Assembly (NCBI GenBank): GCA_000934665.2
Contig: JYFJ02002709.1
Span: forward strand, 1-52,276
From: Catajapyx aquilonaris
Lineage: Eukaryota
Direction: 5' to 3'
DNA: 52,276 nucleotides
Shown here: positions 503 through 36,749 of the stretch, piece by piece
How the letters are laid out: the number at the start of each line of letters is the position of its first letter
Numbering within the stretch: position 1 is the stretch's first letter
The notes under the pieces: model-generated
Told to the model about the DNA's origin: nothing
Databases searched by the model: none
What the model saw: the letters and a program-made list of their open reading frames with translations, nothing else
Made by a program: the position numbers and the translations under genes

Positions 503-1951
503 TTATATACCAGTCCTTCCTCAGTAGCAATCTCTCTCAAGCGGCGGCCGTGTCCTTCCTCAACACCAACCTTCCCCCTCCTGCTAATTAGTCCCTTCCT
601 GTCCAGCTCACCCTCTCCTCTCCTCCATGTAGACTTATCGGGTCATGACCCCGCGTCCTTCTTGCAACCCTTTTCCAATCCTCCCCCAAGCCACCTAGCC
701 TACCCTTGACCCCCAGAGTGAGGGACTCCATAAATAGGAGTTGGACTGGTGGGCTCTGCCCTCCCCTCTTTCACCCTATCCTTTGCCTGATCAGGTCCTT
801 CCTTCCTTCCTATTCCTTCTCACTGTATTTATGTATCATATTGTAATATACTAGTTATTAGCCCACCCTTGTATGTTATTCGCACATATCCCCGACGTAC
901 CGTTACAATACTCCCCCGGGTGGATTAGTCTAAGGAAATTCCACCCAAGACGAAGCCAGAGATGGCCCAACTCTGCACGAGATGAAGGGCTGGGATCACA
1001 CCCGGGCGCATAAGTTACCTCAGCGACACTCCGTCTCCTCCGCTGCAGCCGCTATATACTTACCATCTCATTGCGTGCCTTTTGTCAGGACCCTTCCGGA
1101 TTATCTGGGAAGACCTCTGTAAGTTGTTGAGGAACGCAGGTTTTTGATTCTGAAGCAACCAAGTGTGAATGTGATAAACCAACTCATTATTGGGTTTAAT
1201 TATACATAATATAGGGAGTAACCCCTTACACCAGAACAATGTCGGCCAAAATCTGAAAGACTTGGTTACAATCAGTAAGATAGTGGCATAATCATCAGGG
1301 CGGATCTTCTTGGGACACACGCATGCTTGGCTATGATGGCAAGTTGTCCATCCTTGTGCTTCGGCAGCCAGTGCAGATCATCCGGACACAAGTACTGGAC
1401 ATCACTGTCATCAAACATGACAAAATTAATGTCTGAATATTTTAGAAAATGGGGGGGTTGGGGGGTAATTGTTGGTTTGGTTGTTGGCATTGTTGAAGGC
1501 ATTGTGACGCTACTGACTTTACGTGGTTGCAACAGCTGTGATTGGCGCATTATTAAAGTGCACTTCTAATATACAGTCCATATCAAAATTGCATACACAC
1601 CATTGTTAAACTTTAATACGCTACTTTTATATCTTTTTAAAATCATACGCAAATTATGCTCATAAAATGAAATAGTTAATATGCCATGATTAATTGATTA
1701 CCTTATCTACGATGCCACTCAACGGTCTTCATCGCCAGAATCACACGTGCACTGTGCGATTGAGCTGAGTTTATCCTGGAAGTCATCTGTCCGTGAGAGC
1801 AAGAGAGATTGAAAGGTAGCCATCCAGTGTCAGGATAACCTGCACCTTGGTAGGACGGCCGCTACTCCCCCAGGAGACAGGCATCCCCCCAGTTTTTCGG
1901 CCCCGGTTCGCCCTCCGTGGTATTCCCNCCCCCCCCCCCCCCCCCTGTTTT

Positions 1952-2142
1952 GATCGAGCTCTTAGTCACCCTCGACCAGAGAGAGAAGGACCCGAAGGTA
2001 CATCTCGTCCCCAGTCAGGGGCGTCCAGCGGTCGCCACGAGGAGGCGTCTCGACCTGTAACTTAGACCTGACCAACTGGGGCAGCCCCCAGCAGTCTACT
2101 CCCACAGCACATGAGAGTCATTCAGTCATAGTTACTCCCGCC
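1952..2142 (-). ncRNA. HDV-like self-cleaving ribozyme, R2-retrotransposon type, with 28S rRNA-derived 5' segment
   Basis: Minus-strand fold: P1 GGCGGGA(2142-2136)/GACCGCU(2033-2027) with G.U at +1; P2 GGUCGAG(2055-2049)/CUCGAUC(1958-1952); P3 GCC(2046-2044)/GGC(2036-2034); L3 UCCUCGU; P1.1 GG(2026-2025); long P4 capped by cUUCGg; J4/2 ACUAA with candidate catalytic C at 1965. The 5' segment GGCGGGAGTAACTATGACT..CTC matches 28S rRNA just upstream of the R2 target site. Confidence 0.8.
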
Positions 2143-2170: not shown

Positions 2171-4252
2171 CCGGGACTAGGTGAGCTTTGGAAAGAATGG
2201 TGAACTGCGCTGCAAAGTGACAGATCGACCGACAGAGCTCCTGGTGATGAAAGCCCAACGGATCCTGGTGGAAGAATCTCTCTGCTGGGAGAAGGCCTTG
2301 TATGTTAGCCTAAATAGCGGGAACTTGGGCTGCAGGACCTATTGGGTCGATCCTTATCCTCTTTGAAGTACAGGTGTGCTGGTCTTCTGCCCGAGTGACT
2401 CTATAAGGCATCGGCCCAGCACGCCCAAACCGAAATGGGCGTCCGACTCGACGAGGCCAATAATATGCAGCCCAGTCCCCAAAATTATAATTGGGACAAT
2501 GTAACAAAAAGCGTCACAGATCATTCAGCTCATCACCATTCTTCATATTGTGGTAATAAAGCTGATATGAAAAAGCGATATACGCATCAGCCCAACCACT
2601 CGCCCTATTCTGACCTGTCCTATCTTTAGCCAAGTTTTTTTTTAATTAACATATTTTATAATATGCAATGACTGTTGTTATGAACCATGGTCTAATGTTA
2701 CGCCGTGCTAGTTGCTGTTTCAACATGTGGGTGTTTCAGTTTACCAGATACTGTGTAAGCCTGGAAAAAATAGGTTCGAGCCAAGGATTCGTGCAGGTTA
2801 CCAATAGCCAGACACCGGATGTTTCCAAGAAGCATTGTGGATAACTTAATGCATGATTTTCAGTTTCACCATTCGAGATAAGTTATGTAGTAGACCTTAT
2901 ACGTAGGATATATGTTAAGGGAACGATACCATGTTTGACCTTTTTGCAGGTTAAGACTGTGGAAGGTAGTTGCAGAAGACGGCGATAAAACCAATACCAT
3001 ATCAGGCAAAATGGCTTTGCCTGTCACAAGCATTCATCGTAAATATATTCACACCTTCAAGATAAATCAACGACAGCAGATGGTTACATTATCCGCTAAG
3101 TATGACACTCAGCTTTGACCTGTTCGTAAGCAACCTGTGCCATAAGCGGTTAACCATGGTTTTAAATACCATTTCACTCATCAGGACGTGGCCTTATTAC
3201 AACCAAAAATGTCACCCTCACGCCAAAGAAACCGTGCCTAAGAGGCAGTTACTCTGAGAGAATAAAATGAACATGAATATTGAGAATAAGACAGTCATTG
3301 CATTTACCACACCAGTGTACGTGAATTGCATAGTAACATTAACTTGGCTTCCTAACTATAACACAACCTGTTCACGGGATTATTTAACGATGGAGTGTAT
3401 GCAGAGTTAAATGTATAGCACATTTCTGTTTCAATATGACTGAATAGGAATCATTCAAAAATATTTGGCCCAATCGGAAATTATTATTACGGGAGCAAAA
3501 GTGTTTCAAATTAATAATTAAGATTCCTCATTCAATGTTAACAGTTTATTGGTGCAAAAATGTATCTTTGAGCCAATTGAATTGCAAATTGTAAAATATC
3601 TTGTAAAATATTCAAAACATAAAGAGTTATGCCTAAAGGGCATTAATAAAAATTCTAAGCAGCATTACCACTCTCTTTGATAGAATGTTGCCAAATAATA
3701 ATAAAAATCCACAACTCACCAATCCTCTTGAGCACTGAAAGCCTTAAAAAAGTCTAGATATATTCAACTAATCTGGAGTCTAGCTGCGATTGTGGCCTGC
3801 CAATAAAAATAAACTGATTTATATGGTGCGGTGATGAGCTGAGTCTGTTCTTCGTGTGTCAAGTTGACTGATGTACAGCATGCGACATGCTCGCAGGACC
3901 TGTGCGTATGACCTTAGCTGTGTATGACCTTTGCTGCGTATGACTAAAAATACCCAACGGCCTACACATGACCTACACACAGTACGGCCCAGGAGATACG
4001 CGCATTGCTGTCATCCGTCAACTTATGTTCATTTTAAAAAAGACACTGAAGGCGACCCTGATGAGATCATGACGCCGCAGGATGACACTCCATTAAGGGA
4101 AGTGGCATCTACTTGTTGCGGTGATTCCTTCCTCCACCAGGCGGCATGGCAGGATAATCACAGACGCACATCCCAAACGGTTTGAAGGTCAGGGCCACAT
4201 CTGATCCAGAGGAATGAGGGGGAAAAGGGGGAAAGGGGGAATGGAGCAAATT

Positions 4253-5940
4253 ATACTTGTTCATGGGATCATGAACATCATTGGACTTTTTTACTTGTTC
4301 ATGTGATCATGAACAGTCAGCTTAACTATTATTTGTGATCATGGAAATCAGCCAACTTATAATTACTCGTTCATGTGATCATGAAGATCATTGGACTTTT
4401 TTACTTGTTCATGTGATCATGAACAGTCAGCTTAATTATTATTTGTGATCATGGAAATCAGCCAACTTATAATTACTCGTTCATGTGATCATGAAGATCA
4501 TTGGACTTTTTTACTTGTTCATGTGATCATGAACAGTCAGCTTAATTATTATTTGTGATCATGAACAGTCAGCTTAATTATTATTTGTGATCATGGAAAT
4601 CAGCCAACTTATAATTACTCGTTCATGTGATCATGAAGATCATTGGACTTTTTTACTGTTCATGTGATCATGAACAGTCAGCTTAAATATTATTTGTGAT
4701 CATGAAAATCAGCCAACTTATAATTACTCGTTCATATGGGATCATGAAGATCATTGGACTTTTTTTACTTGTTCATGTGATCATGAACAGTAAACTTAAA
4801 TATTATTTGTGATCACGAAAATCAGCCAACTTATAATTACTCGTTCATGTGATCTTGAAGATCATTGGACTTTTTTACTTGTTCATGTGATCATGAACAG
4901 TCAGCTTAATTATTATTTGTGATCATGGAAATCAGCCAACTTATAATTACTCGTTCATGTGATCATGAAGATCATTGGACTTTTTTACTTGTCCATGTGA
5001 TCATGAACAGTCAACTTAAATATTATTTGTGATCATGAAATTCAGCCAACTTATAATTAATGTTCGTATGGGATCATGAAGATCCTTGGACTTTTTTTAC
5101 TTGTTCATGTGATCATGAACAGTCAGCTTAAATATTATTATTTGTGATCACGAAAATCAGCCAACTTATAATTACTTGTTCATATGGGATCATGAAGATC
5201 ATTGGACTTTTTTACTTGTTCATGTGATCATGAACGGTCAGCTTATATATTATTATTTGTGATCATGGAAATCAGCCAACTTATAATTAATGTTCATATG
5301 GGATCATGAAGATCATTGGACTTTTTTTACTTGTTCATGTGATCATGAACAGTAAACTTAAATATTATTTGTGATCATGAAAATCAGCCAATTTATAATT
5401 ACTCGTTCATGTGATCATGAAGATCATTGGACTTCTTTACTTGTCCATGTGATCATGAACAGTCAACTTAAATATTATTTGTGATTATGAAATTCAGCCA
5501 ACTTATAATTAATGTTCGTATGGGATCATGAAGATCCTTGGACTTTTTTTTACTTGTTCGTGTGATCATGAACAGTAAACTTAAATATTATTTGTGATCA
5601 CGAAAATCAGCCAACTTATAATTACTCGTTCATGTGATCATGAAGATCATTGGACTTTTTACTTGTTCATGTGATCATGGTCAGCTTAAATATTATTATT
5701 TGTGATCACGAAAATCAGCCAACTTATAATTACTTGTTCATATGGGATCATGAAGATCATTGGACTTTTTTACTTGTTCATGTGATCATGAACAGTCAGC
5801 CAACTTACAATTACTTGTTCAATATGGGATCATGAAGGTTATTTGACTTTTTTACTTGTTCATGTGATCATGAAGATCATTCAACTTAAATATTATTTGT
5901 TCGTGTGATCATGAATATATCAGCCAACCGAAATATTATT
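4253..5940. repeat. Tandem satellite, ~110-bp monomer (~15 copies) built from three related subunits of roughly 30-40 bp
   Basis: ATGAAGATCA recurs at 4381 and 4491 (period 110). Each subunit carries TGATCATG. The monomer contains the hairpin TGTTCATG-tgat-CATGAACA. Confidence 0.95.
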
Positions 5941-7430: not shown

Positions 7431-7635
7431 AAAGCAGAAGAAAATCATACCTACTCAGAGGAAAAGATAGAGTTTTACATACTTTCGTATATAACCTACA
7501 CATTTTGCTCTAAGTTATTCATTACCTTATTTGGAATATTTAACGGATCATTGCTCCCACGCCCAACCGTAGGGGGCTCCCCGAGCTTTCTTATAATTAT
7601 CCTACACTCGTCCTGCTTACAAAAAGAGGTGAGAT

Positions 7636-8126
7636 CCCACCAAAAACCTTTCAGTAAAAAAAGGCCAAGTTCTCCTGACTGCCTGGCCGTCAAAAGTGGT
7701 GAGATCTGAAATACGGCCAAGTTCAACGTCGTTGTCAATTACTGGCATTCTCAACTTCTTCAACCTAAACCACTAACTTTGTTTTTCCAGGTCGACCTTA
7801 AGTTTAATCATCGAAAGATTTTAATGGAATTTCTCTTGCTGTAACTTGGCCATTGCTCATGTCCGAGGTATTGTTGAATTCTACAACTGTTTCAATGTTT
7901 TAAGAGCAATGGTCAAGTTACAGCAAGAGAAATTCCATTAAAATATTTCGATGATTAAACTTATGGTCGCCCTGGAAAAACAAAGTTAGTGGTTTAGGTT
8001 GAAGAAGTTGAGAATGCCAGTAATTGACAACGACGTTGAACTTGGCCGTATTTCAGATCTCACCACTTTTGACGGCCAGGCAGTCAGGAGAACTTGGCCT
8101 TTTTTTACTGAAAGGTTTTTGGTGGG
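7636..8126. mobile_element. Palindromic (fold-back) MITE, CMC/EnSpm-like termini
   Basis: Near-perfect inverted arms of ~225 bp (CCCACCAAAAACC...GGTTTTTGGTGGG) around a ~45-bp spacer. Flanked by AT on both sides (possible 2-bp TSD). Superfamily is inferred. Confidence 0.8.
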
Positions 8127-11100
8127 ATAACACGTTTACTTCATGTTATTTGACCATGAGTGTCATACCGTAATTACCGTGTAGTTCATCTTAATTAGGA
8201 TCCAATCAAGGGATGCAACCGAAATGAAATTAAACTTAATATTTAATTTGTACAACTGTGACCGTCGACGTCAACATTAGTTAATCCGATCACGGGATCC
8301 ATCCTGATAGCACAGTCACTTAAATCAAGTTTCCTTGCTCCTGCGAGTGAGACAATCAAGGTCACGAAAGTAGCCTCTTTGTCCCCAGCCCTTCCGACGC
8401 CCCCGTACGGGCATATGCTGTGATTTTTAGCAAACCAAGTTTATACTAAAGCAAACAAGAGTTTAGATACAACAATATCAGGTTGCATGGAATGCCGCAA
8501 TTACAGGTCAGGGGTGGTGATATGTGGGAATAACATGGAAATAATTATGTGGTTATGGTTAATCGCGCAGGATTAATTAGCCTGGGCCCTAGCGGAAAAA
8601 ATGAAATACACAATCTGCATTACACAACGTTTCTCAACTTAAATAACATTAATATATATAACACCCCTCTAACCTCCCATCTAACACCTCAAAGAATGGC
8701 CAGCTGATAGCAGAAAAATCTATGATCAAAATGCGTTAATTTCAGCGGAATGCACCGCGTAATGGAAACCTACTGCTAACTATGCAAATTTGCGATTCGA
8801 CTACCAACAAGTATCATTGCATTTGTCAGGAAACTGAAGTTAAGCACATAGGGGCACATTACTTCGGTGACGCCAGCAGACATTCGACATTATCGAAAGT
8901 CAGCGTTACCATTTTTAATTCAGTCCTCATTTTATTCCACAATGATTGCATGCGATGCCAAAATGACATATGTTAAATGCAGCAATAACTGGTTTTGTTT
9001 GAAAAGGGCATTATCGTACACTGAAGGCCACAGTGATTTTTTAAAAAGTGGACGCAGAAAATTCATAATTCAACATGGGAGGCAACATAATATTCGCACA
9101 ACATGAACTCGTATCTTAACAGCACTTGATTGCCAGTGGAAAAGCGGCAGATCATTCTCATAAAATAATAAACAACGAGAATATGAAAATAGTTACAAAA
9201 TTTCATTTTCAAATGAGCCTGTCGTATGCCCCATAAATACAGCCTCTTCAGTGTTACTGCAAATAATTCCAAACTATTTTCCTTTTAAGAGTAATCTCAG
9301 ACTTTAATTACGTGAAACAGTTTGCACGCTTGCACAAAATTATAAAGCCGCAAAATTTGAAGTTGCCCCATCCCTCTCCACATTGCCTGCAACAAATTTT
9401 TTTTGACGCTCAGGAATTCTTCACTTAAAATCACAGCTCGTCAAATCACATTTTAGTAAATAAAAATCAGCTGTGCAAATATTCCCATGGAATGATTCTC
9501 AAATTATTGCGCTGTGTACAGAACCGCAAGGGTCAAATGGGACAACTATATATACGCCGACTGATACATGCCTATAGCCTACTGACTGTCGTGTGGACAC
9601 CATTTGACTTCCATCTAAACCGCTGTAATTATGCTTCTAATTATTGTAATTGTAACTCTTCCATAATTTTAAAATTTTGGACTACGAGTAGCCTACAGTA
9701 TAAAAAATTGTCATTAAAACTCGCTGCAGATGAAAATGGTCAAACAATGTTTTGCCATAAGGCCTCAGCCTCCACCGTTGTCTCGAGATCATTAATCGTC
9801 GCACTTAAGTCGCTCAGATAGCTGTCTTTTAATTACCGTACCTTATTGCGATGAGGTGTGCCGCACTTGACGCCGATGCGATGGAGGCCCCTCGCACACG
9901 AAGTTCACTCAGCTACTCGGCACGATAATCTGAGACGTAGCCTACTAGACAGGTCCAAAAAATATTCTTTGTGCAGGTCGAGTAAGGGAAAAAAAGATAA
10001 GGTGCGGACGTTGTCAAGTTTATTCAAGGCTCAGTATTTGGCTACCTAATGTCTTCAAATTAGTTACAGATAACAGATCTCTCGATATCTTTCTTTACAA
10101 AGTGGCTAAAGGTTCAGCTGCATGAAAGACACGTACTGTATAGAGTCGTTCAGTTTCATGACCATAACACTACAAAGTGATTGCAATGTGTTCCGATTAA
10201 ATAATTAAATACGTTTATTTTATTTTTATTATATATGTCTAATGAGTCCTCATTACCCACTTGGAGTCATTTACCTGGATCGGTTCGCCGACCCCTCTCA
10301 CACACATCTGGATTTTCCAATAAAAATCATGAATAATTAGTAATAATTTCTAATGCCATTTCCAACATTTCGGGGGGCTGCCCCCCCCCCCCCCCCCNGG
10401 CCGGGTCTTTTTCCGCTTTTCACCCGACATGCCGGAGCAGAATTGCACTCCCTTCTCTGCTCGGGGCCAGGAGAAAAGGCCTGGTGTTAAAGAATGTCAG
10501 AAATGGCTATCGCACGGCGCCCTCCCTTGGGAACTTCCCCTTCCCCCCTAAGAGGGCCACGAGCTCTATCACGGGGTAACAAAAAAAAAAACAAAAAAAA
10601 AGAATAATAAGGAGGCATCAAACTGGCACATTTCATTTCAAAATATTTGATAGTTTAACTCTTTTTTTAAACCTTTCCTTCCATTAAATGTTTAAAATTA
10701 TTTGAAGAAACAAAGCCAACTACTCTGATGAGGCTTAATAGCAATCATAATCCTCTCTTCCAGGTATAGGAAGAACTACTCTTGACTCTTGAGTTAATAC
10801 CATGGTGTTATGATTATGACGTGTCAATTTGCGCGCCAAACGAGAACAACCATCTGAATAATAATTCTCCAGAGCATCGATTGAGGACAAATCAATGCAT
10901 ATACAGATACTGTATTCACCTGATGTCTCATTCATTTATGGAGTGCAGTAGCCTACCTTCAGCAAATAATAATAGACATGAGGTCATGAGTTGTCGCATG
11001 TATACGGATGCACATGAAAATTAATATTTTAGCACACACAGTGGGCTCTAATTGGTTGACAATATAGAGAGAGTTTGCCAAGCAGTTAGCTAGTGTGGAT

Positions 11101-11389: not shown

Positions 11390-12330
11390 ACATAATACTG
11401 TCCAACAAGCCTTCCGTCCTCTGGCTGTCCTGGCCAAATTGGGGGGTTGCTTCCAACGACCAGGATCTGGAACGGACCATATGGAACTCCAGAATGGAGC
11501 ACTCCTGTTATCTTCTTATCTGCTACCATCGCCGTGATAGTCATCAATTTATAGGATTACACTAATGATGATGATATGACGCCCCTGCAGAAGGGGGCAC
11601 TAAAAAAGTCGTGGCCTTTGTTTTCAATCTGTTTTATGTTCACGGTTCTGATGCAGTCGTACATACTTCTGCTGGTCAACTTCAGAAAGATATGCTTGAT
11701 TTTCAACAAATTCGTGGAGTTTGATGGGAAGTTTGAGAACAAGGTGAACAAGTCCATGTTCTTTGAAGCGTTGGGAATGCTGCTTTGTGCTTTAGTGCTG
11801 CAAGTGGCTTATATCCCGGTTTGGATAGCAGCTGTTGGAAAAGCAGAATCCGCACTATGGAACTCTTACTTGGTCTTGCGGATATACACTGGCTTCTTCG
11901 ACAGAATCGGTACATTCATGGCTATTTTCCTGTCCAAATGTGTGAGGAACCGCTTCTCTGTGGTGAGTTCCTCTATTGAATCCGCCATTCAGCTTCTGCC
12001 TGTCACTTACCCATTCTCCGAGACTGAAAGAAAAACAATGTCCATCAATGGTTGCACCCCAAAACATCTGGCAAATAGCAAGCACATTAAGGCCCTGTCA
12101 GACCTGCACTGCTTGTTTCAATACCTGTGCATGACAGTGGATGCAATAATTGCAATCAGTGATGCCTTCGGATGGATCCTGCGCCTCGAGTACCTCCGAT
12201 GCATTGTCACCATCGTGGGTTCAGCAGCCTTCCTCATTTTTAGTGAGTGGAAAGCTGAATACAAAGAGCCAAAGTTTTGCTTCATCTTGGAGGTCATCTC
12301 AGCGTCTGTAATGCTTGTGGTCATGCCTTG
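11390..12330 (+). pseudogene. Gustatory-receptor-like (7tm chemoreceptor) pseudogene
   Basis: N-terminal HNTVQQAFRPLAVLAKLGGCF, a frameshift near 11455, and an in-frame TAG at 11552-11554. A hydrophobic multi-TM ORF follows, with GR-like motifs (FLSKCVRNRF, LHCLFQYL..AISDAFGWIL). Sequence after ~12330 looks unrelated and the C-terminal TM7 motif is absent. Confidence 0.65.
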
Positions 12331-13269
12331 TTCGCCAGTAGTTCCAGAAATGACCGTTGACTTGTTGGCTTGCAGGCATGGATCAAGGCTCCCAGGCTAC
12401 AGGCTAACTCACTCTTCAAGACGCAAGTACTACTACCGCTACATGGCGTGGAGGTTGCAAACGCACTCACCTCCACCAGCGCCATCTAGGGAGCCGAGCC
12501 GCCATAGACTCCTGCTACCTACGGTGGCGAGCCTCAACCCGGTTGGATAGCCACATGCCCACATCATTCATGTCTCTCTTTATAATGGACATATGGCTGG
12601 CCACTTTCCTCAGATATTATTAGGGAAAAAATTAGAACAGGAATTAGAGGTTCCGTGCCATTTGCCCCAACAGAGGCAGTGCACTACCCACAATTATTAT
12701 TTTTATTATTATTATTACAATGGCTGCAATCAGTATACAGTAGGGTAAAAAGCTTCCTTGTGGACGAGTAGTTACCAAAAAATTCGTTGTCACCACTAAA
12801 AGAAATTGCACTTGGGTTCTCATTCTCGCACTGCTTTTCTTGCTAACACTGGTCTGAATAAAGAAAATGTAGCATCCCATACCCTAAATGAAAAGCAGTT
12901 AGCTCTGTATACCCCCCAAATATTCGTACGTAATAAAAAAATCTCTACACTTATGCAAAAAATAAATAATTAAAAAAGGCACATACAATGAGGGGGATAT
13001 GTGGCACAACAATTTTCCAGTTGAAAACTAATGTCCCTTCTCCCAATTTTTTTTCCGGCCTACTGTGAATAATATTGCTGATCAAGTCTCCCCCTCTCCT
13101 GCAGTGTTGCCACATGGCAAGAGATTTTCTTTTTCCAAACCCATTACATAGGAAGGTGTATAATACACATATTATTGTTCATGATTGATTTTTTTTGTAC
13201 ACAAACTTTTAACGCATAACAAAACTCTCACACTTCAGTCTGATTTTAATTTTTGGAAGCACCCAAATA

Positions 13270-13521
13270 TCATGAGAGTGACTCTCTCAGAGCATGAAGC
13301 TGTTCTTCACCCAGTTTGAGTTTATCATCAATTTCCCTGGAGTCCATGATGAGCTTTGCTTTCATCTTCACAAAATGATCATAGTCTGCGTACTCGTCTG
13401 GGTTCAGGTATTGCCTCAGAAAGCCAGAAACCAGCTGGCTCCGGCGATCTATGCTTTCTTTAAGGCGCTTTGCTTCCTCTAGCTGCTCTCTCAGTTTACT
13501 GCACTTGCCCTCCAGAACTCT
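13270..13521 (-). CDS. Shroom: Shroom terminal coding exon (end of ASD2)
   Basis: Acceptor ttttccacag, phase 0. RVLEGKCSKLREQLEEAKRLKESIDRRS...DYDHFVKMKAKLIMDSREIDDKLKLGEEQLHALRESLS* is the ASD2 C-terminus. Confidence 0.95.
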   Translation of the reverse strand, partial: RVLEGKCSKLREQLEEAKRLKESIDRRSQLVSGFLRQYLNPDEYADYDHFVKMKAKLIMDSREIDDKLKLGEEQLHALRESLS

Positions 13522-13649
13522 CTGTGGAAAAAAAGTAACATTAGCAACAAGTAACATAATAGGGTAAGCAGTATTGTCAATAGGCTATAATAATAATATA
13601 GCCATATAATAATTGGGTGTAGTGCATACCCTCACAAGGGTTTTGCAGG

Positions 13650-14326: not shown

Positions 14327-14391
14327 GAAAGCAGGTAGTGCTCCCGACACTACTTTGACTCACTTTTTGATGAGGAATTGCTTACTATTAA

Positions 14392-15300
14392 GGGTGGGAT
14401 AAAGGTCCCGGCGCTTATGGAGGTTGACATGTTAAATGTCGGGCCTAATAACTCTGTAATAAATTTCTGAACAGAATTACATGAAATTTTTGACACAACA
14501 CGACACAACAACCCTTGTCACGGCTATGTTGAGCGAAACCTGTTCTAGGGATTCAGTTAATTATGAAAACCACGAAACTGAGAGGAATTTGAAGGCATGT
14601 GAGGAAATAATGTCCTGTGAAGAATAAGGACCAAATGAGCAAGATCGCTCAACACACCAGTGATGTAGAATGCTGTGACGAATGGGAAAAAAATAATCAT
14701 GTCCTTTAGTGTAGTTTCAACAGAGTCATTAGAAGATAACCCCGCTCTCTGAAACCCCTTGATGGTCATTTTGACTCAGATCTGATGATTCCTCGATCAT
14801 GCTGTCCGCCATTTTTTCTTCGACTTTTTGACATATGGCACTGGATAGCTTCCGTCATCCTGCATCCATGTGCAAATTTGCATGTCAAGTGGTTCACTCT
14901 GCATGACGTGATGACGCTAACGTGTCCGAACATGTGCATCTCCATGAGCGGGGTTATCTTCTAATGACTCTGTTGACACTGCACTAAAGGACATGATTAT
15001 TTTTTTCCCATTCGTCACAGCATTCTACATCACTGGTGTGTTGAGCGATTTTGCTCATTTGCTCCTTATTCTTCACAGGACATTATTTCCTCACATGCTT
15101 TCAAATTCCTCTCAGTTTCGTGGTTTTCATAATTAACTGAATCCCTAAAACAGGTTTCGCTCAACATAGCCGTGACAAGGGTTGTTGTTGTGTCGTGTTG
15201 TGTCAAAAATCTCATGTCATTCTGTTCAGTAATTACGGAGTTATTAGGCCCGACATTTAACATGTCAACCTCCATAAGCGCCGGGACCTTTATCCCACCC
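14392..15300. mobile_element. Non-autonomous DNA transposon with TTAA TSD and GG termini (Kolobok-like)
   Basis: TTAA|GGGTGGGATAAAGGTCCC ... GGGACCTTTATCCCACCC|TTAA, with ~350-bp near-identical inverted arms. Confidence 0.85.
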
Positions 15301-15675
15301 TTAAGCATTTAAGACTGGAGCTGGAGGTTCGTCAGTATCGTCACAAAGTAGTTAATTTTTAATAATAAAATAAAATATTTTAAAACTTTTTTTTGGGGGG
15401 GGGGGGCTAGCAGGGGGGCCCAGGGCGCTCGCACCCTGCACCCCCCACCCCCCATAAATCCAGCACTGGCTAGTAGAACTTAAGAGAGACTGAATTGTAG
15501 TGAAAAAAAATATTGGAAACGACAGTTTTGGGATTGGAAGCATATTTTTTAAGTCAAATTATTAGAACCACAGTTACTAATACTAAAGAAAAAATTGTCA
15601 ATTAGATCAAACAGAATAATTATCATTACAATTAATTGACTTTCAACATCCTACATCAGTTTTACTATCAGTAAC

Positions 15676-15970
15676 TGGGGGAAACATAGCGGCACTGCTG
15701 TAACGTATGCTCCCATGGATGGAAGGGTCCCTGGTTTGATTTCAAGCCCAGGCATTCCCCCACTTCATCTCGTGCAGAGTTGGGTCATCTCCGGCTCCAT
15801 CACAGGTGGAATTCTTTGTGACTAACCACCCCGGGAAACTCGCAAAATAAATGAGCAGCGACATTGCACATTTGCACCTTGCACCTCCCTTCCCACCCAT
15901 AGCTGCCTGCGGAATTCGAATCGGGGCACTTCATAAAAAGGGTCCAATATGCCACGAAAGTATAATAAAC
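15676..15970 (+). mobile_element. Degenerate SINE-like dispersed repeat, copy B
   Basis: Homologous to copy A in opposite orientation. Degenerate B-box-like GGTTTGATTTC near 15733. Confidence 0.5.
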
Positions 15971-16568: not shown

Positions 16569-16844
16569 GTTCTTTCCTAATGCCCCTCATATTATCTTAC
16601 AGTATATTATATTGTATTATATTATTATTAGAGCCTTTACAGTTGCTAGAAAATGAAATCACTTGGCATTTTCCACCTCTACACCTTCACTAAAAAGCAT
16701 TCACAAAAATATATCTACCAAGACTTAGCCTTACTGACACTGTCAAAAAAATTGTCTTTTTCAAAAGTGCCTAGCTTCCGCTTCTGGTAACACAACTCTT
16801 GAAAATAATCAGTAACTTCTACAAAGTCACAGTCTGTTACGAAC

Positions 16845-17117
16845 CCTTTCTTCCTGATTGGCTTCTTCAGGCAGGCCTCTGAGTGCATTCTCTGCTCTGG
16901 CAAGTCTTCCAGAAAGCCCAAGCAGCAGGCAGGTAATCTTGTCAATTTCTTCCACATGCAGCTGGAACTTGCTGTACTCGCTTGCCTTAGCCACTGACTC
17001 AACCCTCGATCCCACAGAGTCACCCAGCTGCTGGTTTAAATGGATCTCCTCTTGGATAGCCAGTTGCTCTTCACGCAAGATCTCCAGTTTGCGTCCAATA
17101 CTAGCCACCAGTTCTTC
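16845..17117 (-). CDS. Shroom: Shroom exon (ASD2)
   Basis: atctttcag|GAA...AGG|gttcgt, phase 0-0. EELVASIGRKLEILREEQ...EEIDKITCLLLGLSGRLARAENAL (ASD2 LLLxLSxRLAR motif). Confidence 0.95.
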
Positions 17118-17816
17118 CTGAAAGATTACCATGTCACAGAATCAAGTACTGGTATATGTCCAAGATATGTACTATCGGCAGGGAAATGGTCCGGACACTT
17201 GTCAATGCTCAGCCTACCTCCAAGTGTCCAGACCATTTCCATGCCAATAGTACTGACCATCACGAGAAAGATAATGGAGACAACTGGTCACGAAAATACA
17301 GAGGTCCCAGAAACGCTGTAATACATCAGTGGCAGGATGGTAGTGTAGCAATCCCTCATGGCCTTTAGTTGCCTCCAATCCTGATTTAAAAATCATATCT
17401 GTAACTAGCTGTCTCCAATTTTCTGCTCACATGCAATGAAACCTGAACGTAACGGACCCTGAGTATAGCAGAATATTGTCCACTGCAGATTTTTTTAAAG
17501 AATGGACATATGCATAAGACATAGGCTACATAATGAATTTTTTGACAAATCTAACGGAAACCTGACCAATGCAGAAACAGGATGGATTTTTGTCCCCTTG
17601 CATGCGAAATCCCTGTTCACAATGAAAATTAAAATGTTGACATTATCCTGTGAGCCACTGACACAACAACAGAAGCATAGGCAAGGTGCAGGAATTATCA
17701 TTACTGCAAAGCAGAAGGAATTAAATGGCTATTAAGCTAATTTTGAATTCACTTCAGAGCTCCCCAAGTTCACAAGTTCTCAAATCTGGCAGTATTGTCT
17801 TTGATGAAAATACTAC

Positions 17817-20179: not shown

Positions 20180-20381
20180 CTGCAGTAATTTCAAAAATTT
20201 GGAAAATCAGATCTTGTGTTCTAGTTACTTATGATGCGACTTATTGGCTGATTCATATAATAAAAGCATGATAGTAATATTATGGACTCTGATCAGTGGG
20301 GACCATGGGTTGGGGACAAGAGGTCTGCAGTATTATACACACAACAAAATACTTCATGCTACATGGGTTGTTTTTTTTATA

Positions 20382-20916
20382 CAGGGTGCTCAAAAACTCG
20401 CGGAAAGTGGCCAAGTAGCCTGATAGGACTTGCAAAACTAATATAGGGATGTGGAAGTAGTTTTTGGCTAACTTGCATAGTTTTTGCTTACGACGCCTTT
20501 AAGATTTCGGGAGTTTCATGACGTCACATCCGCCTTGAGGCCCCCCATTGCGTCATCATACATGTTGTTGTGGCTGTTGCCATTGGCACTGATTATTGTT
20601 GCGAATATTGTCAACTGTGATTGTTGAGAAATAAACAACGATTTCAGCTTGTATCTGTGGCCAGTCGACACCTCAATTGCCAGACTGAAAGCGGTTTATT
20701 TCTCAACAATCACAGTTGACAGTATTCACAACAATAATCAGTGCCAATGGCAACAGCCACAACAACATGTATGATGACGCAATGGGGGCCTCAAGGCGGA
20801 TGTGACGTCATGAAAAACTATGCAAGTTAGCCAAAAACTACTTCCACATCCCTATATTAGTTTTGCAAGTCCTATCAGGCTACGTGGCCACTTTCCGCGA
20901 GTTTTTGAGCACCCTG
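20382..20916. mobile_element. Palindromic Tc1/mariner-type MITE
   Basis: TA|CAGGGTGCTCAAAAACTCGCGG ... CCGCGAGTTTTTGAGCACCCTG|TA. Arms are complementary almost to the centre. Confidence 0.9.
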
Positions 20917-20991
20917 TATAGTTTTTGGTGTGAGCAGGCAGATACAGTGGAAATACAGTAGTACAGTAGATGGCATGAGGGTGTTTAAGAC

Positions 20992-32400: not shown

Positions 32401-32986
32401 CGGATTACATGGACACGAAATCAACGGATTAAGGTCCCATCTGCTTTGAAAATTCGTTTCAGATCTTAGGTCTCTTCTTGTCTAACTGACGGGGAGAAAA
32501 AAGTCACGATAAAACATGTGACAAGGTGGCGCTGCTCGTGACTGCCGGGTTAATTCGAATCTTAATTGTGCTAAGATGTCTCTCGAGTCGTGTTATGACG
32601 TAAGACGTGTAATTGGCAGGGCTGGAAGTCACCAGCTTAATCCAGGAGAATGCATGGCGCAATTTCACAGTCGGAATTGGCAAAAGGAGCGTGAAATACG
32701 GTTCCTAAATATTAAGCACTTGGTGAGAAATTAGCTTTTTTTTCGATTTTCCCCACCCTATACCACCTCGTTCCCTATGTTTACCCTGGAGAAATGTACA
32801 GGTGCCAGGTGGAAAAAAAATTCAACGCCCATATGTACTATTACTGGTTCCATTTGCGTCTCAGAATACTTCAAATGCCAGAAATCCCCTGCAATCTTTT
32901 CCTGGGCAGATATACGCAGAGTAATGAGGACTCCTATATAATGTGTATCCAGTTGTTGGCATATGAACAAATCTGGTTTGACGTAC

Positions 32987-35264
32987 CTGTTGAGGTGGTG
33001 CAGTCCTGCTGAACGATGGCACTCGGTCCCGGTGCGTGCTGGTGGTTTGGAGATCAGATGCTGTGGAGGACCTTCTGGAACTGAAGTGAGTCATGGAACT
33101 CTGACTAGAAGACCTCGCCAGCGGGGCCGCACCGACGAAGAAGTGCTGCTGCCCTGAATGCGGTGACTTGGGCGAGGAGGGCAGGTCCCCGCACTCGGGG
33201 TCGGCCTGTTCCGGAAGCCTCCCGAGACGAGATTTGGCCTGCCTTCCAGCAGCCAGCTCGGTCATCCTCTTGAACTCGTGGTAATAGTCCCTGGGCAGGG
33301 ACTGGGCCTGCTTCCTGGACAGGAAAATTGCATTGTCGTGTCCTTTGGCACTGTTGCTGTACGTTTGTGGTGCGGGCTTCCCGGTGTGACGCTCGTAGTA
33401 AGACAACACGGCTCGTTTCTGGAGGGCCTTCAAGGCAGGGTCTGACACCTTGTGCTTCTTCTCCGGATCCAAATACGAGTAAGAAGTCGATGGACTCTCC
33501 ACCAGACTGTTGAACATGTTCTGATAACTTTCGCTTTGTTCGTCGTCTTCGTCTGGACGTCTACGTGGAGACGTTGTAGCACCGCGAGCTTGCTTCTCCA
33601 GCTCCAGAATACGTTCGGCCACCGATGGTGGTTTGCTGGTGTCGACGGTCGGCGAGGTCTGGGGTGACCTGCCCGACTCGTCTGGTACCTCCACATACGT
33701 GTTCAGCGGGAACTTTTTCAGATTTGGGTTGTGTCTTTCGGGGCTGACCAAACTGAGCTGCTTGGGTCGTCCCTGCCTCTCCTTGTCTTCGCGGGTGTAG
33801 TACAGGACACTCTCGGAGTTGTGACGTTGCGGGGCTTGTACTCTTGCACTGTGGGCTATCAGCTGCTCCCGCAGTTCGTACCGTTGAGAACTACCTCCAC
33901 TGAGGACACTAAGGTCACTAGTCGACCCGTGCCACTTCAGTGTCTCGTTGGAACTGTTGGAGCTGCTGTTGGTCACCACTGTGGTTACGCTCTCGCGCCC
34001 GCTGGGGTGTGACGGTGGGTCGTCCTTGTCGTCGTCTGTACCGACACACAACTTTTCACTATCCCTCCTGAGCTGATCCAAGAACGGGGTGCTGCTTGAC
34101 AGGGACGATGAGGATTCACTGGAGATGTAACTATGGTACCCTTCTGAATGTGCGTAATGATGAAAAGCCTCGTCGTATTTCTTGGCGTACTCCTCCAGTT
34201 CGCTTTGGGTCAGTGTCTTCATCGAATGGGTTTCGACGTCACGTTCTGGCGGCGACGGTATTGTGTAGTCCTTATCGCCCAAGATCTTACCATCGCGGTC
34301 GTATTGCGGAAGATGTGACGAGTATCCTTCTTCGAGTAACACTTTGTAGTTCTTTTTGGGCTCGAAGGCCTCTGGAGGAATCTTCTCGCAACGTTCCAGC
34401 ACGGTCTTCAGCTGCTGCGTGTACGCCGGATTGGTCCTTTTCATGTAAGGTCTGGTGTACCCCACCTTTTCCTTCGGATAGTCCGTGTGTTCAGCCCAGG
34501 ACTTGCTTCGGTAGTTACCTCCAGCCGCTGGCTTAGGAGGAGGTCCACCTTCGACTTGGTTGGCTGCCGTTGCAGGTACGGGCCACGACGGGTACTTCTC
34601 ATGCCCAGGTCCATACTTGATATACTTCAGACTAGAGGCATCACGTACCGGAGGCTGCGGAGGCTGCGATGGCTGCACATTGTTCAGCATCTCCGGTTCG
34701 CTCTTGGTCCAGCTCTGGTGGTGAACATCGTGATGACCAGGGTCGTGATGACTCGGGTGGTACCTTCCTTGATCGTGGGTCAGGCTGTCGTAGGACGGAT
34801 ACCTCGCGTGAGCCGCGGGGAGCATGGCATACGACGACGACCTGACATGTGCCACATACTCATCCTTTTCTTGCTTGCCATGCCAGGCAGAGGTCGGGGC
34901 AAAGTTCAACCCCGACTTGTTCTGCAAATATGTATAAATAGACGCCTTTTTGGTCATCTCCAGGTGTTGCTCCAGATTCGGAGTTGACCTGGCGCTGACC
35001 AACGTAGCACCCTGCGGCTGGTATTGCGGCTGGTGGTGATGGTGCTGGTGCTGCTGGTACGGGGGGCGGTGACCCTGCATGTCGGATGGATCAGCGTCTA
35101 CATCCTGTGCCAGAGTCGGGGTCGACTTGGCACTGAGGATGACCCTGCTGGACTTATCCGCCGGTACCCGATTAAGCGAATCGGAGCTCGGAAAACGCGC
35201 CAGGACACGCTGGGACTTGACATGTTTTCGTCGACCTGGTGAAGCCCGCAGTTGAGGCGACTCC
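32987..35264 (-). CDS. Shroom: Shroom large exon (2278 nt; includes ASD1-like actin-binding region)
   Basis: tttgtgtttgcag|G...CAG|gtacgt, phase 2-0, open throughout. Motifs KYIKYGPGHEKYPSWPV, SNETLKWHGSTSDLS and YLDPEKKHKVSDPALKALQKRAVLSYYERH. Confidence 0.9.
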
Positions 35265-36749
35265 CTGCAAACACAAACAAAAATACTTAGTACGAATCAC
35301 TTCATTAATCAACAAGTAAGCGACAGATGGCGACACCCAGGATGCACCAACAAGTAAACCAGTCAGCACCTTGCAACATCGCCTTTTCAATGAGACCAAA
35401 AACACCGGTAGCCCATATCATCCCATAGGAAAACACACCATATGTCACTCTTGACATGACTTTCACTATGCGATTCATACGCTTGTGCAAAGTCTTCATA
35501 ACGGGGTCAGTTCGCTCACGTGGGGTAAGCCTGGTTGTGTTGTGATTGCCCGACGCCGCCATGATAAATCACAAGTCATTTTTAATAAAGATCCCGAATG
35601 GCAAAATCCTGTCTGCATAGACACGGTTTGTTGACCGGTATTGGTCGAACAAAAGGCCGACACAAGTCTTGCGGGTAGACCAACATGGCCGGTTCCCTTC
35701 AGGCTATACAAGTCTACCTGTAAAATGGCTTACAAGAGCTTGCTGACCAGCAGAGTGGGCGGTTCGCCTTGAACCTGACTGATCGTCAGTGAGGTTTGGT
35801 CCTGCATGCGGAACCAGTCACAACTTGGGATTGGCCCCCCAAAAAAAGTCTTTTACGCACCAAATTACATACAAGTTACAACAATAGGAGACCAAATTTA
35901 CTTTTCTGCCAGTGAACCTCGAAAATTCATCTACCATAAAAGTGTACGGACTTGCCCCACTTCACGTGTGTGCCAACCGACCCATATTGACGACAATATT
36001 TACCACACTTTCAGCAAGCACTGCTGCGACAAAGAGAGCAGGTACGCCCATTGGGTCCAACATTCATGTCATTTACATGCTCCAGCATGTCGCGTTTTCA
36101 CTATCCTCGAGTTAGTAATGCATCGCGCAAAGTGTAATATAAAATCACACACGTGGCATATCTGGCATGCCTTCGTGCCTTCTTCTGGTGAGAAATTCCG
36201 ACTCTCACTTTCCACAACCCAAGACATCGCAGCAAAAGCGTCGTCACGGAGAGCCCAACCATACCAAATCTCATTTGCGACCCTCATCTCTCATGTTATA
36301 CACAGGGGGAGGCAGGTAGGAGGGGAGGCCCACCTTCATCCTCACATGTTGCAATTTTCTCTTGACATGACAAAACTTTTCCACCAACACAAAAATATGT
36401 GGGAACGGCCCTTTTTTTTGTCAAACAACAAATGGCAAAACAACCCTCCGAAAAAAAAAGGGTCCCCCGCATATGTCATTTTTACGACTCCATGTTGGGC
36501 CAACAGCCTTTGGCCCAGTATTGAGAGTGTCGACCACCCAAAACCTAACGCCAGATCTGATCTCAGGCCTGAGCATTCCATCTGTCACACCACAGTATCG
36601 TTTGTAAACGGCCGGTAAATGCCTTTCACCTCTCAGAAATTCCTCATCGATCTGTGCTGCCTGTCACTGACAAAATGGGTGCTTGGAATTCGGCAGGTGA
36701 CTTACATAGCGTTTAAATAATGGCGCCATTATTATTGTGACGTCCCCCT

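Follow-up and report, generated by a model that had tools for sequence, protein, structure and literature searches.

An R2-type ribozyme outside ribosomal DNA in Catajapyx aquilonaris, a probable relic of a self-cleaved R2 RNA

We analyzed a 52,276-nucleotide stretch of DNA from Catajapyx aquilonaris (NCBI GenBank assembly GCA_000934665.2, contig JYFJ02002709.1, positions 1 to 52,276 of the forward strand), called here the window. Its minus strand, from position 2142 to position 1952, carries about 191 nt that by their anatomy appear to form a complete R2-type ribozyme of the hepatitis delta virus (HDV)-like class, with a predicted self-cleavage site at its first base. The 5′ end of this sequence is a piece of 28S rRNA, and no other ribosomal sequence surrounds it. 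The ribozyme is probably the relic of a self-cleaved R2 RNA that integrated outside the ribosomal DNA (rDNA). We favor this origin because the boundary of the 28S sequence coincides with the predicted cut, and because copies of the R1 element in Drosophila provide a precedent.

Results

With G2142 taken as position 1 of the minus strand, the elements of the HDV nested double pseudoknot are present in order: P1, J1/2, P2, P3, L3, P3′, P1′, P1.1, P4, J4/2 and P2′. The 5′ strand of P1, GGCGGGA (2136 to 2142), is predicted to be cut 5′ of G2142 and pairs with GACCGCU (2027 to 2033). Positions 1-5 and 112-116 form the pairs G.U, G-C, C-G, G-C and G-C, topped by the mismatches G6xA111 and A7xG110. 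Five pairs beneath two mismatches fall within the range of R2 ribozymes and make a weaker helix than the canonical HDV P1 of about 6-7 bp. P1 is followed by J1/2 (2056 to 2135), an 80-nt domain that folds as a three-way junction. Its closing helix pairs the 28S sequence GUAACU with the element sequence AGUUAC, which suggests that the element evolved against its 28S leader. P2 joins GGUCGAG (2049 to 2055) to CUCGAUC (1952 to 1958) with seven of seven pairs, one of them G.U, and its 3′ strand is the end of the assignable ribozyme.

The core of the ribozyme is GCCUCCUCGUGGC (GCC-UCCUCGU-GGC, 2034 to 2046), in which P3 is GCC/GGC with three pairs, or four if extended to CGCC/GGCG, and L3 is UCCUCGU. 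Within this 13-mer, at 2045-2035, lies an exact copy of the conserved R2 active-site sequence CCUCCUCGUGG, which Kojima 2016 singles out, in the R2 ribozymes of fly and zebra finch, as the best-conserved sequence. The GG at 2025 to 2026 (G117 and G118) is able to pair with C101 and C102 of L3 and would form P1.1. J1.1/4 is AC (2023 to 2024), and P4 is a long stem of 55 nt with a c(UUCG)g cap (1968 to 2022). J4/2, GACUAAGAG (1959 to 1967), contains the candidate catalytic C1965 within C-U-A-A, and six nucleotides separate this C, whose role is predicted, from P2. In HDV the spacing between the catalytic C and P2 is three nucleotides. An earlier note on this DNA, made from the letters alone, had described the same fold. 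Its elements were all recovered in order with the exact R2 core, and a listing of the pairs agreed with its P1 (G.U at +1, five pairs, two mismatches), its 7-bp P2 and its UUCG-capped P4.

A chance origin of the ribozyme was ruled out by the core match, the 28S pattern, and shuffles of P2 and of the folds. The 13-nt core occurs exactly at 2046-2034 and nowhere else in the window. Once two mismatches were allowed, two places matched where 0.61 would be expected by chance, and we give weight to the exact match alone. A 22-nt 28S pattern matched the window at one place, with three mismatches, while 0 of 100 shuffles gave any match. When the 3′ part of the ribozyme was shuffled 200,000 times, a 7-bp P2 arose in 14% of the shuffles, and a 7-bp P2 with C-N-R-A no more than 11 nt before it in 3.0%. 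P4 alone folds at -28.3 kcal/mol (z = -2.91) and J1/2 alone at -35 kcal/mol (z = -4.07), and in neither case was any of 200 shuffles equally stable. For the full 191 nt, the nested fold of minimum energy stands out less from its shuffles (z = -2.46, 4 of 200) and contains a competing helix between the 5′ strand of P2 and the 3′ strand of P1. Such a helix is expected, since a nested predictor cannot draw a double pseudoknot.

The 28S-derived leader (2113 to 2142, minus strand) consists of 19 nt corresponding to 28S positions -28 to -10, an 8-nt insertion, and CTC (-9 to -7). Its first 19 positions are identical to the 28S string GGCGGGAGTAACTATGACT as printed in Eickbush, Burke & Eickbush 2013, the insertion repeats ATGACT, and the leader stops short of the R2 site, lacking the final 6 nt of 28S. 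The 5′ strand of P1 is thus 28S sequence beginning 28 nt upstream of the R2 site, GGCGGGA and onward from 2142. According to Eickbush 2013, the 5′ strand of P1 is supplied by 28S sequence in many R2 ribozymes, and -28 is the commonest R2 self-cleavage site. The same paper reports that deletions and duplications at the 28S junction, once formed, enter the RNA and propagate. The 8-nt duplication and 6-nt loss seen here fit such propagation.

Directly 5′ of the element lies a microsatellite, (GGAA)n on the plus strand and (CCUU)n on the minus strand (2144 to 2170; Tandem Repeats Finder: period 4, 6.8 copies, 100% matches), which is not 28S. A single C (2143, minus strand) stands between the two. 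It falls out of the CCUU register, is the base found at 28S position -29, and could be either the last 28S base or a non-templated addition. Because C2143 also matches -29, the boundary of 28S identity is at -28 or -29, no more than 1 nt from the predicted cut. A 5′ end made by a ribozyme on an RNA would give such precision automatically, while a DNA fragment of an R2-inserted rDNA unit would match the cut so closely only rarely. On the sequence, an RNA-defined 5′ end would be the most economical reading of this boundary.

The surrounding DNA is not a 28S gene. The window contains no rRNA (0 Rfam gathering matches), no rRNA gene fragment of recognizable length and no downstream half of the 28S R2 target, and the upstream flank of the ribozyme is the microsatellite rather than the R2 site of a 28S gene. 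We scanned 89 of the 97 stop-to-stop open reading frames (ORFs) of at least 85 aa, the omitted eight overlapping an 811-aa exon in other frames, and found no Pfam match to a reverse transcriptase or endonuclease among them. Nor was there one among the nine minus-strand ORFs of at least 50 aa in the 1.95 kb downstream of the ribozyme, where the window ends, and this closeness of the end weakens the absence of an R2 ORF. Those 1.95 kb contain an intron, a fragment resembling a short interspersed element (SINE) and a (TA)n run, with no R2-like ORF. Several claims of the earlier note hold up here: a 5′ strand of 28S sequence with a small duplication, a start at the -28 cleavage position, 28S identity ending at the predicted cut, and a location outside rDNA. 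Its statement that no R2 ORF is visible also agrees with the scan, and says less than it seems to with the window ending so near.

This evidence bears on an origin at the DNA level, in which recombination or repair relocated a piece of R2-inserted rDNA, or in which an ectopic R2, once full-length, decayed and its body was deleted or lies beyond the start of the window. Copies of R2 outside rDNA, often incomplete, are reported from five of the eight R2-bearing Drosophila species for which a result is stated (Stage & Eickbush 2009), and the nearby end of the window could conceal more of such a copy. By our own estimate, with breakpoints spread over at least 100 nt, a breakpoint within 1 nt of the cut would arise by chance at most a few percent of the time. 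Together with the lack of other rDNA in the window and of an R2-like ORF in the downstream 1.95 kb, this makes a DNA-level origin quite unlikely.

Sequencing contigs were used to ask about contiguity and copy number. Five runs of the same organism cover part of 1500-2600, four from one sample (shares 0.44-0.52) and a fifth, X5, that belongs to a different sample and study (share 0.14). Contigs of three DNA runs and of X5 were compared with positions 900-2700 at a likeness of at least 80%, leaving out 2134-2177 as repeat. Contig depths are not copy numbers, contigs show presence and not absence, and copies less than 80% alike are missed. Six bases past the ribozyme is a poly-G run (1925 to 1945, minus strand; poly-C on the plus strand) with one N inside. 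DNA contigs cross this run at 1853-2045, 1675-2004 and 1814-1969 (three times), with length differences, and the bridging contigs, from three DNA runs, carry substitutions of their own. The downstream side of the ribozyme is not an assembly artefact. The N within the poly-G run, and a 5′ junction that lies inside a microsatellite and inside the interval left out of the comparison, would suit the fusion of an rDNA or R2 read to unique sequence. Such a chimera should retain 28S sequence upstream of -28, and none is present. With the core joined to unique downstream DNA in contigs of three runs, we consider an artefact most improbable.

The locus is of low copy number. At the variant sites listed, the ribozyme is represented by one or two contigs per DNA run, while the SINE-like repeat at 910-989 is represented by 39-104 distinct contigs at its listed sites. 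Summed depths in the three DNA runs are 33-98 for the ribozyme bins, 25-147 for the upstream flank and about 50,000-100,000 for the SINE bins. These figures give no sign of a multi-copy family or of an R2 that is abundant in the rDNA and whose 5′ end is alike to at least 80%.

These counts speak to the possibility of a non-autonomous, ribozyme-headed family spreading outside rDNA, either resembling the short internally deleted elements (SIDEs) of Drosophila or formed as a hybrid with the 3′ end of another long interspersed element. The Drosophila SIDEs show that such units exist, their R2 identity being limited to the ribozyme plus 5-8 nt (Eickbush & Eickbush 2012). The recognizable R2 part at our locus likewise ends just past P2, and a metagenome contig, L046, holds a similar ribozyme without a 28S flank or an ORF. 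Against a family stand the one or two contigs per DNA run (older copies, below 80% likeness, would be missed), the lack of a second ribozyme copy in the window, the lack of an identifiable 3′ module or target-site duplication, and the location in rDNA of the SIDEs known from Eickbush & Eickbush 2012. A spreading family therefore has a low probability. The earlier note had paired an ectopic self-cleaved R2 RNA with an undescribed ribozyme-headed non-autonomous family. The 28S boundary supports the first part. The second part is not supported by the low contig counts, set against the SINE-like repeat, or by the single copy in the window.

The fold on L046 (89-235, plus strand) is another HDV-like one. 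Its P1 is GGCGGGU/GCCCGCU with seven pairs, its core is ACC-UCCUCGU-GGU, GG is available for P1.1, P4 is capped by GCAA, and C-U-G-A precedes a short P2, GUAC/GUAC. Over its first 13 nt it agrees with 28S from -28 at 12 positions, the flank upstream is T-rich and not 28S, and the 1.5 kb analyzed contain no ORF of at least 100 aa on its strand. L046 may be a second orphan ribozyme of the same kind. A degenerate pattern of the core and P1′ was found at no fewer than 120 loci in metagenome contigs. None of the 120 loci listed has 18 nt of 28S (up to three mismatches) within 700 nt upstream, and a 12-nt 28S-like match was found at one of 126 listed loci, that of L046. Patterns anchored in 28S had no match in the genome and viral contig collections. 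The core pattern occurs at six loci in viral contigs, none with 28S-like sequence upstream. All of these collections are essentially microbial, and their negatives have little weight.

A spliced RNA lies directly downstream of the ribozyme on the same strand, a feature missed by the earlier note. A 328-nt contig of X5 (contig 30) matches the window without mismatch and joins 1818-1702 to 1404-1194. The 297 nt that it skips have CT..AC ends on the plus strand, which is GT..AG on the minus strand, and this joint implies that a spliced RNA exists on the strand of the ribozyme. A second X5 contig (contig 31) covers 1905-1789. No X5 contig covers 1937-2700, a blank from which we conclude nothing. 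The first mapped exon, supported by both contigs without mismatch, extends at least from 1702 to 1905. The intron (1405 to 1701) has the donor AAG|GUAAUC and the acceptor UGACAG|U, and the second exon extends at least over 1194 to 1404. The contig ends at an AUUAAA. The mapped part of the RNA starts 47 nt past the last base of the ribozyme, and no ORF runs across the 1702/1404 splice. The kind of the X5 run is listed as "?", and we infer its RNA nature from the splice joint alone.

The donor, AAG|GUAAUCAA (1700-1706, minus strand), has 11 of 16 bases as in the 28S R2 target. We considered whether AAGG|UAAUCAA at 1702/1701 might be a pseudo-target resembling the 28S target AAGG|UAGCCAA. The X5 joint shows it to be a 5′ splice site, and we judge the likeness a coincidence that follows from the splice-donor consensus. 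A CpG island or promoter at the ribozyme was also considered and set aside, as CpG observed/expected near the ribozyme (0.64) is nothing special next to the window median of 0.70.

The contigs also differ within the ribozyme. Among the variants listed, four fall in P4, at 1978, 2005, 2015 (one contig per run, and only one contig there in run X3) and 2018. Three of them fall at paired positions and preserve the pairing, and the fourth turns a C:A mismatch into a pair. In J1/2, changes at 2101/2102 and a 5-nt deletion at 2108 are listed, and two pairs are broken. P1, P2, P3/L3, P1.1 and J4/2 are untouched by the variants listed. This pattern is a hint, not a test, of preservation of the fold.

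An intact fold, these variants and the two X5 contigs on the same strand are compatible with co-option. In that case a ribozyme within a host unit would trim the spliced minus-strand RNA to a 5′ end at G2142, and the stable double pseudoknot of the ribozyme would take the place of a cap, in keeping with a 2024 RNA paper arguing that the HDV-like fold stabilizes uncapped 5′ ends. The variants are drawn from those listed, at one or two contigs per run, and by a rough estimate of our own four structure-neutral transitions would arise by chance about once in 10-20 times. No RNA contig listed contains the ribozyme or links it to the exons, no ORF crosses the splice, and the identity of X5 as RNA depends on that same joint. 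Co-option of this kind is unlikely. The more specific idea that an R2 ribozyme has been kept as the 5′-end-forming and protecting module of a spliced host transcript of RNA polymerase II type, an uncapped long noncoding RNA that arose from a retrotransposon leader, is likewise unlikely.

The remainder of the window is ordinary animal chromosomal DNA. Two minus-strand exons match the Apx/Shroom ASD2 domain strongly (16830-17141, 1.9e-28; 13273-13584, 6.5e-34), with roughly equal scores against human Shroom2 and fly Shroom. Together with the 811-aa open exon at 32864-35296 (minus strand), they indicate that the strand of the ribozyme also carries a Shroom-family gene, which ends some 11 kb upstream of the ribozyme. 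Between the end of this gene and the ribozyme is a 331-aa open frame (11555-12547, plus strand) with a weak match to the chemosensory-receptor family 7tm_7 (E = 0.00098, 19 bits, below the cut-off of 26.6), which, if real, would point to a non-vertebrate animal. A satellite-like tandem array of about 1.7 kb (4177-5930) has a 110-nt unit with TGTGATCATGAA motifs and higher-order periods of 222 and 452 nt. Inverted repeats at 7629-8133, 14388-15304 and 20378-20920, with arms of 230-243 nt that are 97-98% complementary, look like miniature inverted-repeat transposable elements or foldback elements. The SINE-like repeat is present at 910-996 (minus orientation) and 15754-15835 (plus). The copy at 15.7 kb retains a tRNA-like B-box stretch, which the 0.9-kb copy lacks. 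We asked whether the (CCUU)n upstream of the ribozyme might be a SINE 3′ tail acquired by template jump, or a counterpart of the (GGAA)n at 796-811. It shares no body with either SINE-like copy, and the idea was rejected.

Discussion

In the origin that we favor, the 5′ end of an R2 transcript would have been made by its own ribozyme, and at least the 5′ part of the transcript would then have been reverse transcribed, and the product inserted outside the rDNA. If RNA is made from the minus strand today, P1 should form between the 28S-derived leader and GACCGCU, P2 should span P3/L3 and P4, and the GG that follows P1 should pair with the CC in L3 as P1.1. The predicted RNA would be cut between C2143 and G2142 using C1965. 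The element may be competent for self-cleavage, and may still be active.

Several results weigh against this origin. No parent R2 was identified, and the assignment to R2 comes from the ribozyme and its leader. When the upstream flank (33 nt) was compared with the 1951 nt downstream, no target-site duplication reaching 9 nt appeared, with one mismatch allowed, and no R2 3′ end, tail or 3′ module was found. Copies of non-long terminal repeat elements usually lack the 5′ end. One that retains the 5′ end alone needs a second event, and candidates are a later deletion of the body, a template switch on a short, very stable ribozyme fragment, or the capture of a short cDNA at a break. It is possible that a decayed R2 body lies beyond the end of the window, only 1.95 kb downstream. 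The 5′ junction is bridged by none of the contigs listed. A P1 of five pairs under two mismatches and three extra nucleotides in J4/2 leave activity not assured. Finally, Rfam did not recognize the ribozyme: its scan of the whole window gave no match at gathering level. The best permissive match, and the only one to a ribozyme, was to HDV-F-prausnitzii (RF02682), at 15.6 bits against a cut-off of 44 (E = 3.1). It aligned the P3/L3 core only, with a gap opened over part of the model, and the 80-nt J1/2 and the pseudoknot pairs lay outside the scored part. Membership in the HDV-like class is accordingly a matter of anatomy and not of a curated model.

If our preferred origin is correct, a genomic copy that starts at the predicted cut would be in vivo evidence for processing of the host's R2 RNA at -28, and would indicate that non-rDNA sites can receive copies of processed R2 RNA. 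The 5′ junction of the parent element would be recorded in the leader, through the duplication of 8 nt and the loss of 6 nt. If one transcript proves to span both the ribozyme and the spliced RNA, the locus would be a rare instance of a host recruiting a retrotransposon ribozyme to form the 5′ end of its own RNA. For now, the ribozyme belongs to a known RNA class and is notable for its good preservation and unusual location. In the literature searched we found no description of a ribozyme-only R2 relic that starts at -28 at a non-rDNA locus. The ingredients are all known: ribozymes that cut at -28, R2 copies outside rDNA, and 28S leaders on ectopic R1 copies.

HDV-like ribozymes are found in host genes, the CPEB3 intron ribozyme being one that resides inside a host transcript. 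Host ribozymes of this type share with our locus an HDV-like fold in or next to a spliced host unit, and here the origin from R2 is evident.

The closest known counterparts are the R2 ribozymes that cut at -28, which Eickbush 2013 lists for earwig, jewel wasp Ng, silkmoths, flour beetle A, zebra finch and planaria. In that survey P1 has 6-7 bp, with one or two mismatches at its top in about a quarter of the elements, P2 is 5 bp or longer, J1/4 spans 0-2 nt, P4 is highly variable, and 23 to more than 700 nt separate the strands of P1 and P1′. The present ribozyme shares with this group the 28S P1 strand from -28, the long structured J1/2, the CCUCCUCGUGG core, the mismatches at the top of P1, and the features of P2, J1/4 and P4, and the spacing between its P1 and P1′ strands also agrees with the survey. 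Its combination of a 28S deletion with a duplication at the junction recalls the R2 elements of springtail, sow bug and silkmoth described in the same paper. Ribozymes of the -28 type, both native and designed, are active according to the 2024 RNA paper. The ribozyme described here, whose activity is predicted, differs from them in lying outside a 28S gene, with a microsatellite on the substrate side and no R2 ORF. In Drosophila, 18 of 19 R2 ribozymes have a stop codon in J4/2 (Eickbush & Eickbush 2012), and here UAA follows C1965.

The location has precedents of several kinds. Stage & Eickbush 2009 describe R1 insertions outside 28S genes in Drosophila that bear 7-28 bp of upstream 28S sequence at their 5′ ends, read there as the 5′ end of the R1 transcript. 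Those copies and ours are alike in being rDNA-specific elements found outside rDNA, often incomplete, and in the case of R1 also in the 28S sequence at the 5′ end. The extra-rDNA R2 copies of Drosophila are pieces of the resident R2 diverged by 1-2%, whereas the present locus holds the ribozyme only, with a leader apparently defined by cleavage. R2-lineage sequence at non-rDNA sites is also represented by R2NS-1_SMed and R2NS-1_CSi (Kojima, Seto & Fujiwara 2016), which are multi-copy, autonomous elements with ORFs, in contrast to the single, ORF-less ribozyme with a 28S leader seen here. The SIDEs, which according to Eickbush & Eickbush 2012 join an R2 ribozyme to an R2 or R1 3′ end, resemble it in being short, ribozyme-headed units whose R2 identity ends a few nucleotides past the ribozyme. 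They are multi-copy, occupy the R2 or the R1 site in 28S genes and have a recognizable R2 or R1 3′ end. The ribozyme of Catajapyx aquilonaris occupies a non-rDNA site, with one or two contigs per DNA run at the variant sites listed and with no identifiable 3′ end.

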